From NCBI GenBank assembly GCA_963719515.1, contig CAVRCJ010000003.1:1-64000 (forward strand): a DNA stretch of 64,000 bases, written 5' to 3'. Shown here one piece after another: positions 17,573 through 51,940 of the stretch. The DNA is from an uncultured cyanobacterium (lineage in GTDB: Bacteria; Cyanobacteriota; Cyanobacteriia; CAKZMO01). The notes under the pieces are model-generated. The model did no database searches. It was not told the DNA's origin and worked only from the letters and a program-made list of their open reading frames with translations. Each line of letters begins with the position of its first letter. Within the stretch, counting starts at the first letter, position 1. A program made the translations under genes and the position numbers.

Positions 17573-17697
17573 CGACGTCGAATACCTTCGGGTTACAGCC
17601 TTGAGCCGACGCGCTAGGCTAGACGTAGCCTAGCGCCGGAGCCTTAACGTTGGGCTTAGCGCTGCGGCCGAGCCCAGGATTGTCACACGAGGGAGTT

Positions 17698-19083
17698 ATG
17701 GAGAACTGGAGGTTTTTGATTCAGCAAGAGGGCGATCGCGAGTGGCTTCCTTTAGAGCTGCCAGAATCGGAAATCCTGGAGGGCCGTTATCGCCTCGTGG
17801 GTCAGTCGCAGCCGCAGCAGCCTGTTCAAGTTCAACTGGTCTACCGCGACCTAGATACGGCAGCGGTTCCCCGGCACTACCGCCGAACTGCTCAAACCAA
17901 TGCGCAGGGCTTGGTTGGTATCTTTCCGTTCACGCGCCTACAGCCTGGACTTTGGGAGATTAGATGTCACCTTGAGGGAGAGGCCGTGGTGCTGCACCTG
18001 CAGGTTGTTCCCCAGGATGGCGGCTCAGAGCTAGAACCTGAGCTTGATTTGTCGCTCTTCTCCCTGGCTCACGCCTCGCCCAACCGCCCCGCTGCAGACC
18101 CCGGTAAGCGCCCTACGGCCGTCAATGCCCAGTCCACAGCAGAGCCGCCGATATCACCAGACCCTAAGACACCGGATGAGGCCATGGCCTCGGTTGCAGA
18201 GCTGTTTCAGACCGTAGAAGCGATGGCAGATCAGGTCATCAGTGCGATGGCGGAACGGATGAGCGAAGATAGAGCCTTGGAGGAAGCAGCGGCATTGCTG
18301 TCATCGCCACCCCAAATGCCCAAGGCCCAAATGCCCGAGGCCCAAATATCTGAATCACCGGCCTCTGAGGCTCTTGAGTCTCAGACTCAGGCCCCGACAG
18401 TACAGACGCCAGCACCGCAAACGCCAGCATCGCAAACGCCAAAGTCACAGACCCCAGAGTCACAGACCCCAGAACCACAGACCCCAGAACCACAGACGCT
18501 AGAACCACAGACGCTAGAACCGGCCACAATTCAGCTAGACGCCTGCGCCTACACCCTGTATCGCGGCCATCCTCTCACGCTAAAAGGCACAGTTTTAGGT
18601 ACGGATGAGATTTCAGGGCTGCCCGCATTCCTCACCCTAACGCTGATAGAACCCCAGACGGGAGAAGCGATCGCCACCCATACCCGGACTGAGGCGATCG
18701 CCCGTCTGCCCCAGTCCTTTGATTGGGACATCGCGGTCTCACTTCCTCCCCAAACGCAGCTCGTACTGGCGCGGCTGTCACTGCGCACAGGTGCATCAGT
18801 CCAGCTGTGGCCCGTTGCAGAATGCTCATTTGCCGTGATGGTATTGAGCGAGCGGGCTGAGCCTGGCCCCGCGCCCGCTCTTGTGTCTTCTACTCCCCCT
18901 ATAGAATTGCCGTCGTTTTTGCAGGGTAGCGCCACCGTTCCGCCGGAGGCCAAAGCCGCAGCCTTGGCTAAAATAGCTGAGCTTGGTGTTCGACAAGCGG
19001 CTCCCGCCCTAGAGCAGTCTGAGGCTAGCGCAGACGAGCCCCCCAACGAAGTTCCCAATCCGTTTGAGTATCCTGACGTGTGA
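17698..19083 (+). CDS. Hypothetical protein with Pro/Gln/Thr-rich linker
   Basis: GGAG RBS before ATG 17698; N-terminus WRFLIQQEGDREWLPLE...GRYR; its stop codon TGA is supplied by the adjacent mobile element. Confidence 0.75.
   Translation: MENWRFLIQQEGDREWLPLELPESEILEGRYRLVGQSQPQQPVQVQLVYRDLDTAAVPRHYRRTAQTNAQGLVGIFPFTRLQPGLWEIRCHLEGEAVVLHLQVVPQDGGSELEPELDLSLFSLAHASPNRPAADPGKRPTAVNAQSTAEPPISPDPKTPDEAMASVAELFQTVEAMADQVISAMAERMSEDRALEEAAALLSSPPQMPKAQMPEAQISESPASEALESQTQAPTVQTPAPQTPASQTPKSQTPESQTPEPQTPEPQTLEPQTLEPATIQLDACAYTLYRGHPLTLKGTVLGTDEISGLPAFLTLTLIEPQTGEAIATHTRTEAIARLPQSFDWDIAVSLPPQTQLVLARLSLRTGASVQLWPVAECSFAVMVLSERAEPGPAPALVSSTPPIELPSFLQGSATVPPEAKAAALAKIAELGVRQAAPALEQSEASADEPPNEVPNPFEYPDV
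18403..18522 (+). repeat. Coding tandem repeat, 8 x 15 bp (QTPxx pentapeptide)
   Basis: CAGACCCCAGAACCA-like units in tandem. Confidence 0.9.
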
Positions 19084-19389
19084 CATACTCCCGACGCTCA
19101 TCTTTTAGATAGAGCGCGGGCTTCTTGGCTCACGCACCACAATTTAATGGATGCCGCGCAAGAAGGTGTCCTGCTTCATCTGGTCCTGTCTAGTTACGCA
19201 GCAAGCCGTGCAACCCCGATTAGATCCCATCGACAGGCGATTTGTTTAATGTCCAGGCAATGACCAACCCCAGACAGTGACGAGTATTCAATTTCCAGCT
19301 ACGTTTTCTACCGTCTGTACTGTTCACCAGCCAAGGGCTGTACGTTTGTGTCAGGATAGCAGGCCGCCGCCACGAAATAGTTTGAGCTT
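19080..19389 (-). ncRNA. Candidate ~300-nt structured omega-RNA-like transcript inside the element
   Basis: TACAAT -10 box at 19401-19396 (minus); several internal stems; GCCTGT...GAAGCAGGA segment reminiscent of TnpB omega-RNA scaffolds; no credible ORF; 5' end is inferred. Confidence 0.5.
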
Positions 19390-19528
19390 GGTTCAATTGT
19401 ACCCTTTGCTCGCCTCGGCGCTGCCCTTAATTGCCGCCTTCGGCATCCAGTCAAGGGCGCACCTCGACTCGCTCGCTTACATCCCGACGCTGATGCTGCG
19501 CATACAGCGCGGGGCTTTCACGAACTAG
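19080..19528 (-). mobile_element. Non-autonomous, non-coding IS200/IS605-family element (PATE-like), 449 bp
   Basis: Minus strand: TTAG|CTAGTTCGTGA-AAGC + hairpin (19483-19513) at the left end; GAAG + hairpin (19090-19120) ending TATGTCAC at the right end; same end architecture as the tnpB element at 50426-51908. Confidence 0.88.
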
Positions 19529-19711
19529 CTAAAGGGGGAAGTATTTCAGCAAAACATCAAGAGCCTTACGTTGGTTCAACAATGTTAAAAATTCTTAGCA
19601 GATAGGCTGGCGCTGCAGGATTCACAGTACAGTCGTGTCTACAGATACTCGCTACTGTATTGGTTTGCGGTATTTTATAACTTTTTGTTGCGTTCTGCAG
19701 GACATAAACTT

Positions 19712-19880: not shown

Positions 19881-20393
19881 ATGACTCAGATCCCTGACGC
19901 GATCAAAACCAATATGAATTCAAACGTCGTCCACCCACCGGGCGATCCTCAGGTCGGCAATCTGGCGACTCCAATCAATTCGTCTGAATTCACGCGCGCC
20001 TTTATCAACAACCTCCCGGCCTACCGCAAAGGGTTGTCTCCCCAACGCCGTGGTCTAGAGGTTGGTATGGCACATGGTTACCTACTTTACGGACCGTTTG
20101 CCGTTTTGGGCCCGCTGCGTGACTCTGACGTGTCTGGATTCACAGGGGCAGCAGCGGCGATCCTGCTGGTACTGATTTTGACAGTCTGTCTGTCGCTCTA
20201 CTCTAGCAGCGGCGTCAATAAGCCCGTAGCGACTCTGACGACTCCCAATCCTCCGGACGCTCTGAGCACGGAAGAAGGTTGGAGTGAATTTGCAGGCGGC
20301 TTCCTTGTCGGCGGCATGGGCGGCGTTGTCTTTGCCTATCTCTTGGTTCAAGTGCTGGATGCGGGCATTTTTGACGTCATCGGTATGGGATAA
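19881..20393 (+). CDS. psaL: Photosystem I subunit XI
   Basis: GNLATPINSS, FINNLPAYR, RRGLEVGMAHGY, GPLR. Confidence 0.97.
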   Translation: MTQIPDAIKTNMNSNVVHPPGDPQVGNLATPINSSEFTRAFINNLPAYRKGLSPQRRGLEVGMAHGYLLYGPFAVLGPLRDSDVSGFTGAAAAILLVLILTVCLSLYSSSGVNKPVATLTTPNPPDALSTEEGWSEFAGGFLVGGMGGVVFAYLLVQVLDAGIFDVIGMG

Positions 20394-50425: not shown

Positions 50426-50449
50426 CTACTAGACAGGAAGCCCCGCGCT

Positions 50450-50632
50450 CTACCCGTCAGGGTGAGCGTCGGGATGAGAGTCGCGGTCGTCGATGGGGCT
50501 CAATGCCCCGGAGACGGCCAAACTTCGGATGTACTCCCTAAGGACATCGTTGATAGTTCTTTCGGTCATCTCACAATACTTGTCAAGATGCTGCTTTTCT
50601 CTGTCAGCGGCTCTAATAGTTATTTGCTGCAT
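50450..50632 (-). CDS. Small ribbon-helix-helix (CopG-like) DNA-binding protein inside the IS
   Basis: MQQITIR beta-strand pattern followed by two helices (EKQHLDKYC; TINDVLREYIRSL); divergent from tnpB. Confidence 0.7.
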   Translation of the reverse strand: MQQITIRAADREKQHLDKYCEMTERTINDVLREYIRSLAVSGALSPIDDRDSHPDAHPDG

Positions 50633-50665
50633 GTCGTTCTGATGTCAATATGCTATCATTATTGC

Positions 50666-51862
50666 ATGAAAGTCACTTATCAGTACAAGTTGCGTCCAGC
50701 GGCTGAGCAAACGGTTACCATGACCCGATGGCTAGACATGCTTCGGGCACAGTACAACTGGTTGCTGGCTGAGCGATTCGACTGGTGGGAGATGAACCGC
50801 TGTTCGGTCAACGCCTGCCCACTCACCTGTAGCCTTGCGCCACTCAAAGATAATCCTAATTACTACAGCCAGAAGGCTAGCCTAGTACCTCTCAAGCGAG
50901 AGCGACCCTGGTACAAAGATTTGCACTCACAAGCGCTTCAGGAGGTGACGAAGCAGGTAAAGCAGACGTTCGAGCGTTTCATCAAAGGTGATAAAAACGG
51001 TAAGCGTAGCGGCAAGCCTCGGTTCAAAGGCGCGGGGCGCTACAGGACGTTCACGTTCCCGCAGATGAAACCTGACTGCATCGATGGAAGTCGTATTACC
51101 CTGCCTAAGATTGGCCAGGTGAAGCTAATCCTTCATCGCCCGATACCTGATGGGTTTACTGTCAAAACCGCCAAGGTGACTCGCAAAGCAGATGGTTGGT
51201 ATGTGAGCCTGTTACTGGAAAACAATGCCGTTCCGATGCTTACTCCGGATGTCGATAGGGCTAAGTCTGTCGGTGTTGACGTTGGGCTGAAGGATTTCTT
51301 GGTTACCAGTGACGGTGAGAGCGTTCCTATCCCTCAGTTCTTTCGACGCTCAGAGCGGCAGCTATCCAAGCTGCAGCGGCAGCTATCGAGACAGAAGAAG
51401 GGCTCTAACCGCTGGCGTAAGCAGGTGAATCGTATCGCCAAACTACACCTAAAGATATCGCGTCAGCGTCGTGATTTCTTTTCTAAGGTGTGGGATTGGC
51501 TGTTTTCAAAGTACGATGTTGTCGCTCATGAAAAGCTCAACATCAAAGGACTTGCTCGAACCAGACTGGTAAAGTCAATCGCTGATGCCGCATGGGGTAC
51601 ATTCTTGGAGATAGGCTCTTTCAAAGCCGCGAAAGCTGGAAAGATGACCATCGCTGAGAACCCACGCGGAACCAGCATTGATTGCTCGGGTTGTGGTGAG
51701 CGGGTACCAAAGACGCTGGCCGATCGGGTCCATAGTTGCCCGTCATGCGGCTTAACGATCTGTCGCGACCACAACGCGGCTATCAACCTATTGAATAGGG
51801 CTGTGGGACATCAAGCCCTTAATCTCTCAGGAAATGTCTCAGCAGTAGCTGGGAGTCACTGA
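50666..51862 (+). CDS. tnpB: RNA-guided endonuclease TnpB
   Basis: YQYKLRP N-terminus, GKPRFK, RuvC-I GVDVG, RuvC-II HEKLN, Zn finger CSGC/CPSC, RuvC-III RDHNAA. Confidence 0.95.
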   Translation: MKVTYQYKLRPAAEQTVTMTRWLDMLRAQYNWLLAERFDWWEMNRCSVNACPLTCSLAPLKDNPNYYSQKASLVPLKRERPWYKDLHSQALQEVTKQVKQTFERFIKGDKNGKRSGKPRFKGAGRYRTFTFPQMKPDCIDGSRITLPKIGQVKLILHRPIPDGFTVKTAKVTRKADGWYVSLLLENNAVPMLTPDVDRAKSVGVDVGLKDFLVTSDGESVPIPQFFRRSERQLSKLQRQLSRQKKGSNRWRKQVNRIAKLHLKISRQRRDFFSKVWDWLFSKYDVVAHEKLNIKGLARTRLVKSIADAAWGTFLEIGSFKAAKAGKMTIAENPRGTSIDCSGCGERVPKTLADRVHSCPSCGLTICRDHNAAINLLNRAVGHQALNLSGNVSAVAGSH

Positions 51863-51940
51863 GGAAGCCCGCGCTGTATGCGTAGCATCAGCGTCGGGAG
51901 GATGTCACGCGCTAACCCAGATCTAAGCGGAACCAGTCCT

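Follow-up and report, generated by a model that had tools for sequence, protein, structure and literature searches.

Short non-autonomous derivatives of IS200/IS605 insertion sequences (ISs), among them the palindrome-associated transposable elements (PATEs) of Haloquadratum walsbyi and the cyanobacterial miniature inverted-repeat transposable element 'Nezha', reportedly carry subterminal palindromes and occur in many copies; they are said to have been defined by their ends only, before omegaRNAs were known, and are compared here by description only. PATE-like elements of the Geobacillus stearothermophilus ISGst families are described in the main text of a preprint (Meers et al., PMC10055086), and standalone, mobilised omegaRNAs of OMEGA systems were reported by Altae-Tran et al. 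in 2021, as summarised in PMC10691335. According to the main text of the cryo-electron microscopy paper on ISDra2 (PMC10097598), extra 5′ sequence upstream of the 116-nt omegaRNA scaffold is dispensable. In this study, a 449-bp protein-free element was investigated in a 64,000-nt stretch of DNA from an uncultured cyanobacterium (assembly GCA_963719515.1, contig CAVRCJ010000003.1, positions 1 to 64,000; the whole stretch is hereafter called the window). We consider it highly probable that this is a gene-less IS200/IS605 element which carries a promoter and an omegaRNA-like RNA, is moved in trans and serves a nuclease encoded elsewhere. An original prediction, made from the letters of the window, had proposed such a non-autonomous, trans-moved element, and the shared fold, the promoter position and a TTAG-type tnpA-bearing IS605 described below support the proposal. 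The coordinates, the TACAAT −10 box and the flank sequence ACGTCAGGATACTCAAACGG given there were found correct when the minus strand was read again.

To find copies of the element, its 449 bp were compared by blastn with the genome (5.28 Mb, 21 contigs). Nineteen alignments of at least 440 nt were obtained, 18 at 98.4–100% identity (the window copy included) and one at 68%. All 18 near-identical copies lie in different flanks; TTAG precedes 17 of them and CTAG one, 17 end in TCAC and one in TCGC, and the target is not repeated in the 3′ flanks (no target duplication). This pattern of flanks and ends is taken as the signature of IS200/IS605 peel-and-paste insertion, and on this comparison of DNA sequences the element is shown to be mobile and recently amplified. 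In place of terminal inverted repeats, both ends carry subterminal imperfect hairpins that share the stem and a bulged T. The left-end hairpin is identical at 31 of 32 nt (blastn) to the right-end hairpin of the window's own tnpB element (51868–51899), a near-identity that had been noticed originally; the end of that tnpB element, first placed at 51898, actually lies at 51908. The same hairpin stem occurs genome-wide at 111 left-end-type and 102 right-end-type sites, and the genome contains 81 matches to the TnpB zinc ribbon (PF07282) and 14 to the Y1 transposase (PF01797). TTAG also flanks the window's tnpB IS and an IS605 copy at C10:~312171-313990, which bears tnpA (159 aa; Y1_Tnp, E = 7.5e-41, 139.5 bits) and tnpB and has a CCCGCG..CGTCGGG hairpin stem in common with the element, the loops being different. 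A candidate transposase that could act in trans is therefore present in the genome.

Blastn of the element against 60 relatives gave only end hairpins of up to 65 nt (in 12 of the 60 genomes) and one 32-nt interior match. As DNA similarity was too short-ranged, covariance models were needed. The last 200 nt of the element are shared with the diverged same-genome copies C1 and C4, and the same scaffold module is present in a second gene-less subfamily (subfamily 2; 415 bp, 6 copies) with a different 5′ half. Model R1, a covariance model built from 9 gene-less copies, recovered 26 gene-less copies at 141–246 bits, with 225 bits for the element itself. Full-length matches of 39–67 bits were obtained at the 3′ ends of resident tnpB genes, starting 0–5 nt after the PF07282 matches (for example C10:348979–349137, behind the PF07282 match 348794–348976), and R1 matched at up to 85 bits at tnpB 3′ ends in other genomes. 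In the element, the R1 match finishes at the last base, so that its 3′ end abuts the transposon boundary. The R1 alignments of gene-less and tnpB-linked sequences correspond helix for helix with compensated stems, and the single-stranded motifs AAAUUGCCUGUGGA, CGGGG, CUAG and GAAGCAGGAA are common to both. The left-end hairpin gave a local match to the hairpin part of R1 at 19483–19513. The right-end hairpin by itself scores 25–29 bits with R1, and model R3 was therefore built from 10 gene-less copies with the right-end hairpin and the tail removed. Searched against the whole genome at E ≤ 0.01, R3 gave 10 matches beyond the 26 gene-less copies, of which eight abut TnpB zinc-ribbon matches, two are diverged gene-less sequences (C4:98204, C7:179916) and none lies elsewhere.

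Alignment A3 comprises 32 sequences taken from this genome and others; 16 are gene-less, and the other 16 are linked to tnpB or have an unclear linkage. In A3, 94.6% of cells are paired, against at most 44% with the partners slid; compensatory (double) changes are present in 48 of 58 pairs, and 0 of 500 shuffles reached the observed values. The two helices of the right-end hairpin (helices 7 and 8) are 96% paired, with double changes in 11 of 13 pairs. A3 was fitted to R1, which favours structure; the fold nevertheless appears convincing, given the slid controls and the number of pair types. The evidence for structure is covariation and not folding energy, since folding of the single RNA sequence gave no unusual stability (z = −0.86). 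The CCTGTC/GACAGG stem that had been proposed is not the covarying one: CCUGU pairs with GCAGG further downstream, with a G-C to A-U compensation. In the single-sequence fold, the guide of the window copy shows a 9-nt complementarity to its own 5′ domain; other copies lack it, and it was taken as chance. We read the last 200 nt as a TnpB omegaRNA scaffold. The original prediction had offered two alternatives for the RNA, a different TnpB partner and an undescribed RNA class; the former agrees with the present results, and the latter is contradicted by the TnpB-type scaffold.

The tnpB genes matched by the models belong to one family with the N-terminus MLTLNYSYRIYP, a length of 419–445 aa and the domains HTH_OrfB_IS605, OrfB_IS605 and Cas12f1-like_TNB. 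The models thereby point to a partner outside the tnpB family of the window's own element, as had been suspected. Full open frames from MLTLNY are present at three of the 12 partner loci that were examined: two are TTAA-type (419 aa) and one, intact at C10:892619–894041, is TTAG-type (445 aa). Truncations, interruptions or an insertion at the RuvC-II motif (motif placed by eye) affect the remaining loci. Two kinds of left end occur in the family, one TTAG-flanked and one apparently TTAA-flanked; positions 1–64 of the TTAG-type left end are 92–97% identical to the left end of the element, and the TTAA-type left end is 95% identical to that of subfamily 2. Partner orthologues with 72–73% identity were found in three of the five other genomes bearing the gene-less RNA, together with a 55% relative in a fourth, and the fifth has no orthologue at E ≤ 1e-30. 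This co-occurrence is weak evidence, TnpBs being common in cyanobacteria.

Diverged relatives have a −10-like hexamer in the equivalent place (TAGAAT, TATGCT, TATAGT, TATAAT and TAAAAT), and the position of TACAAT corresponds to that of a TATAAT 5′ of tnpB in the parent IS. The second left-end stem is preserved in the diverged copies C1 and C4 by a compensatory T-A to C-G change (alignment), and tnpB-bearing relatives also carry a hairpin just 5′ of their TATAAT. We infer transcription from the TACAAT box and, from the position of the flank relative to the scaffold, a use of the flank as guide, as in known TnpB omegaRNAs (main text of PMC10097598). None of the 18 guides has a TTAG-adjacent match elsewhere in the genome (first 16 nt, up to 2 mismatches), which fits a pure homing role. 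Among public RNA data, six runs contained 4–6% of the sampled words, and four of these were inspected; the RNA found consists only of metatranscriptome contigs of relatives with ~85–99% likeness, none of which spans the element.

The element is proposed to have arisen by internal deletion from a tnpB-only IS200/IS605 element. It would have retained the two end hairpins recognised by TnpA, the promoter of the left end and the omegaRNA scaffold of the right end, and a 75-nt 5′ hairpin domain would have been added. The Y1 TnpA of the genome's IS605 copies would excise and insert the element as single-stranded DNA 3′ of TTAG. An RNA of ~310 nt, driven by TACAAT, would read through the right end into the flank, so that each copy would bear its own 16–20-nt guide. 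The intact 445-aa TTAG-type TnpB would load this RNA in trans and cut the element-free allele (TTAG + flank), and recombination with a sister chromosome still bearing the element would restore the copy. In this way the element would act as a parasite of TnpA as well as of TnpB. Gene-less elements from other cyanobacterial families and from metagenomes have retained the scaffold, the −10 box and the 5′ domain, even with changed end hairpins, and the element appears to be under selection for the RNA fold after losing its nuclease gene.

Several observations weigh against this mechanism. The scaffold has diverged from the TnpB-linked version, as the R1 scores indicate (39–67 bits against 225 for the element itself), and it has a longer stem 1, an extra hairpin and the tail GUCAC instead of UUCAC; cross-loading on TnpB is therefore not guaranteed. 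A complementarity scan of A3 and inspection yielded no partner of the tail for a pseudoknot of the ISDra2 type. TnpB-linked relatives fit a tail/stem-1-loop pseudoknot (loop GGAAU with tail AUUCAC, or loop GGAC with tail GUCAC), and the element's loop GGUCAU has with the tail GUCAC no clean fit and no covarying partner. A 5-nt complementarity between UGACA in the 5′ domain and UGUCA in the tail is formed by invariant bases and is hence beyond covariation. No −35/−10 pair was found at the TACAAT box by a sigma-70 consensus scan. The RNA contigs of relatives include the part of the left end that precedes the putative start, and could therefore be DNA carry-over or read-through. The near-identity of the copies within the genome reflects recent spread and not selection, and the homing model leaves the higher conservation of the 5′ domain than of the scaffold unexplained.

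Some of the same observations, namely the diverged scaffold, RNA evidence limited to metatranscriptome contigs of relatives and 18 copies too alike to show selection within the genome, would also suit a mobile but functionally empty deletion derivative, whose ends are moved by TnpA and whose interior RNA is a fossil without a nuclease user. Transposition of IS200/IS605 elements needs the ends only, as established for IS608 (main text of PMC10055086). A fossil interior would be expected to decay faster than the ends, yet it is the end hairpins that have changed, and across several cyanobacterial families and AT-rich metagenome contigs compensatory changes accompany the conservation of the fold, the −10 box and the 5′ domain. 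We consider the empty derivative unlikely and continue to favour an element that supplies a guide RNA to a TnpB in trans.

The region that separates the −10 box from the scaffold contains a 75-nt hairpin with the invariant core GACACAAACGUA–variable hairpin–GUGAACAGUGC, and the stems flanking this core covary. In 14 distinct sequences of this 5′ domain, the proportion of paired cells is 91.2%, compared with no more than 45% for slid partners, and double changes are present in 14 of 22 pairs (matched by 0 of 500 shuffles). The variable hairpin has 4 to 14 nt between closing CAG/CUG, the closing pairs being swapped to GGC/GCC in one genome, and in the window copy one pair of the domain is broken by a G-to-A change at 19318 that is private to this copy. 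Model R2 gave 21 own-genome matches, all gene-less (the 18 copies, C1, C4 and a truncated C6 copy), and detected the domain in 4 of 150 other genomes in a class-level sample. At every checked locus in other genomes, the R1 scaffold stands directly after the 5′ domain with no same-strand open reading frame (ORF) between them. An exact-pattern scan of metagenome contigs returned 13 loci, of which 10 have the complete gene-less architecture, two are interrupted by the end of a contig and one is truncated; two AT-rich contigs with quite different end hairpins are among them. R2 placed no 5′ domain beside tnpB among the 81 own tnpB loci or the 150 class-level genomes, and with filters off on 13 loci of other lineages it gave nothing (E > 1) in tnpB-bearing ISs or other gene-less lineages. 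A scan of the genome collection with a 17-nt degenerate motif was too unspecific, with at least 115 loci mostly in unrelated bacteria; two of the four cyanobacterial loci examined from it, in an Aphanocapsa metagenome-assembled genome, are full elements. The 5′ domain appears to be specific to one successful gene-less lineage and to be under stronger constraint than the scaffold.

An origin of the 5′ domain from the RuvC-III (D-x-N-A-A) coding region was considered by eye and was not supported, and to our knowledge none of the hammerhead, K-turn and sarcin-ricin readings fits the invariant loop. Our leading guess is that the domain stabilises the RNA or helps it to compete for TnpB. We tentatively put forward, as a possibility that falls well short of our expectation for the element as a whole, that this invariant hairpin represents a new accessory RNA module whose evolution was confined to gene-less guide-RNA elements. 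Such a module might protect or self-process the 5′ end, provide a tertiary contact or pseudoknot strand, or raise the affinity of the RNA. If the affinity role were true, the element's guide would out-compete the cis-encoded omegaRNA of the nuclease, and if the accessory-module reading were true, these elements would be specialised hyperparasites of TnpB and not passive deletion products. As a separate observation, a further gene-less lineage is present in other cyanobacteria (loci L068, L052, L070 and L071 of genomes G018, G007 and G012); it has a 180-nt omegaRNA-like module (R1 59–70 bits) ending in TCAA, different end hairpins, a different conserved leader of ~120 nt and no tnpB frame upstream.

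The RNA could also be functional for a purpose other than TnpB homing, which we rate as less probable again than the empty derivative. In one form of this explanation, a nuclease-dead or other TnpB/Cas12-like protein would regulate a neighbour gene, and the guides do run into the ends of genes, the one of the window copy being antisense to the final codons of ORF 17650–19083. In the other form, the 5′ domain itself would be the functional unit, as a small RNA, protein sponge or self-cleaving RNA, and the scaffold would be secondary; the 5′ core is indeed invariant across lineages with varying scaffold stems and end hairpins, and the domain never occurs with tnpB (21 of 21 own-genome matches, and all matches in the 4 other genomes and the 13 metagenome loci), yet subfamily 2 and the gene-less elements of G132 and G066 keep the scaffold without the 5′ domain, so that the scaffold is the common denominator. 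The invariant core has no complementary target in the genome at up to 2 mismatches. The comparison with Rfam gave no match to the element at gathering thresholds (whole window scanned) and no family for the 5′ domain; at E ≤ 10, only three chance-level matches (E 2.6–5.7) were returned for 18900–19700, with ribozymes, HEARO/IscB omegaRNA and group I introns included in the search.

About 310 nt between the −10 box and the right end are without a credible ORF, as had been claimed: the longest ORFs have 58 and 48 aa (minus strand) and 83 aa (plus strand), with no Pfam match at E ≤ 0.01. Tblastx at E ≤ 10 gave no translated match with a tnpB frame at any of the 81 TnpB loci, and its matches are only the element's own DNA-level relatives, in all frames. 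The diverged homologues of the element differ by indels that are not multiples of three, and the interior is judged not to be decayed coding sequence. The omegaRNA region of the parent IS overlaps the last ~45 tnpB codons (the ORF ends inside the right-end hairpin), so that part of the interior would descend from once-coding sequence, but an interior that is decayed tnpB without RNA-level meaning is extremely improbable, being contradicted already by the covariation counts, with conservation in base pairs and not in codons, as well as by the tblastx result and the indels.

The coordinates of the features are collected in Table 1.

Table 1 Parts of the gene-less element, its flanks and the second IS200/IS605-type element of the window
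Feature	Position	Strand	Remarks
TTAG target / transposon-adjacent motif	19529..19532	minus	Adjoins the left end, outside the element
Whole element, 449-bp protein-free IS200/IS605 derivative (PATE, family 'S1')	19080..19528	minus	18 copies; no Pfam match
Left-end subterminal hairpin, CCCGCGCT..loop..AGCGTCGGG	19483..19513	minus	AGCG-T-CGGG arm with bulged T; presumed TnpA binding site
Second left-end stem-loop, GCCCTTGA..TTAAGGGC	19423..19458	minus	Upstream of the −10 box
TACAAT −10-like box	19396..19401	minus	Putative promoter; predicted start near 19389
5′ accessory RNA domain	19303..19377	minus	Long hairpin with invariant 7x7 internal loop; alignment A2, model R2
Putative omegaRNA scaffold	19080..19279	minus	Stem 1, stem 2 enclosing compound stem 3, extra hairpin, right-end hairpin, tail; model R1
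Right-end subterminal hairpin	19090..19120	minus	Also equivalent to omegaRNA stem 4; helices 7 + 8 of A3
TCAC right-end cleavage motif (transposon-encoded motif)	19080..19083	minus	End of terminal ...GTATGTCAC
Putative 16–20-nt guide ACGTCAGGATACTCAAACGG	19060..19079	minus	From the flank
tnpB-only IS of another TnpB family	50426..51908	+	Same TTAG target, same hairpin stem

The element lands exactly on the stop codon of the convergent 477-aa ORF 17650–19083 (plus strand). Before insertion, this ORF would have ended GAC GTC TAA, with TAA as the complement of the TTAG target; it now ends GAC GTG TGA, in which TGA comes from the element's GTGA end (TCAC as read on the plus strand). The element thus supplies the stop, and the protein end ..PDV* is unchanged. 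Copy C4:158530–158082 is placed likewise behind a 499-codon open frame, and most of the other 16 copies look intergenic. A 170-aa ORF at 19881–20393 (plus strand) of the window resembles what we take to be photosystem I subunit PsaL, which fits a cyanobacterial host.

The tnpB-only IS of the window has a PF07282 match at 51593–51790 and an R1 match at 51795–51908 (50 bits). By its ends, it is read as the parent of a second gene-less family and not as the proposed partner. This family is 392 bp long and has 53 full-length copies with 96.4–100% identity (for example C1:23689–24080, locus L038). Its similarity to the window's tnpB IS covers the first 68 nt (95.6%) and the last 85 nt (86–88%). A TATGAT box is present, as is a non-coding interior of ~250 nt, which ends in the omegaRNA 3′ part of that IS. 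Other traces of IS605-type activity were observed in the genome. At C11:131200–132760 (L036), a TTAG-type partner tnpB is broken at locus positions ~861–905 by a GC-rich palindromic insert of ~45 nt (…CCCCGCGCCGTCGCACGGCGCTAGGG…), which may be another tiny mobile repeat. At C11:289850–292000, a tRNA-like sequence (recognised by eye), a tnpB pseudogene with an in-frame TAA and, directly behind it, a subfamily-2 element form a small pile-up of IS605-type elements. The diverged relatives C4:97986–98358 and C7:179717–180070 score 54.7 and 48.5 bits with R3, and part of their left region is 82% identical; their right ends differ and are without a TCAC terminus, and they may be old, immobilised copies.

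The element would represent a clean natural case of a guide-RNA cassette that shed its nuclease gene, and such a cassette with an RNA fold under selection would support the view of TnpA, TnpB and omegaRNA as separable modules. At least 80 gene-less cassettes are present in the genome (18 + 3 of this family, 6 of subfamily 2 and 53 of the 392-bp family, the third in this count) against 81 TnpB-domain matches. As gene-less cassettes are about as numerous as TnpB loci, much of the guide repertoire would sit outside tnpB-bearing elements. The 5′ domain poses the question of whether omegaRNAs acting in trans depend on additional RNA parts when competing for the nuclease, and natural scaffold variants could inform omegaRNA engineering for compact TnpB editors. 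The gain is incremental, the principle being already published.

Compared with the resident tnpB-only ISs of the MLTLNYSYRIYP family (C10:892619–894041 with TTAG flank; C10:347737–349137 with TTAA flank), the element shares the TTAG target with the TTAG variant, has a right end that is 82–89% identical over the last 45–54 nt, and agrees in hairpin stem, promoter position and a homologous omegaRNA fold. It differs in that the 1.26-kb tnpB is missing, the left end contains an inserted hairpin of 40 nt, the 5′ domain is present and the scaffold helices are expanded, and the interiors are not BLAST-alignable. The order of parts in the ISDra2 omegaRNA, as presented in the main text of PMC10097598, matches that of the element: stem 1 is followed by stem 2, which encloses stem 3, then by stem 4 at the end of the transposon, a short tail and a 16-nt guide. 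No sequence similarity to ISDra2 was detectable, and no Rfam model matched the element. The scaffold of the element has 200 nt, a longer stem 1 and an additional hairpin. A tail/stem-1-loop pseudoknot like that of ISDra2 is plausible for TnpB-linked relatives (GAA loop, UUC tail) and not assignable for the gene-less element, and the 5′ region, which is coding in ISDra2, is here a conserved non-coding hairpin.

The omegaRNA-encoding PATEs described in the main texts of PMC10055086 and PMC10691335 are the closest to the element. Both are protein-free and have both IS200/IS605-type ends, an omegaRNA at the right end and a flank-derived guide; the same genome holds effector-bearing copies, and trans action has been proposed and for some cases reported. 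The concept was presented as more novel in the original prediction than these sources allow, as they already contain standalone mobilised omegaRNAs and omegaRNA-bearing PATEs. The present case differs in its cyanobacterial host, its own conserved −10 box, an RNA of ~310 nt and the added 75-nt 5′ domain, which is absent from the resident tnpB-linked omegaRNAs. In the full texts searched (supplements aside), no PATE-borne omegaRNA with an added conserved 5′ domain and no cyanobacterial case was found. Mobile elements that carry only an omegaRNA and rely on TnpA and TnpB in trans are thus already published, and the element is a well-documented cyanobacterial example of them, in which the extra 75-nt 5′ domain is, within the literature searched, the only new feature.

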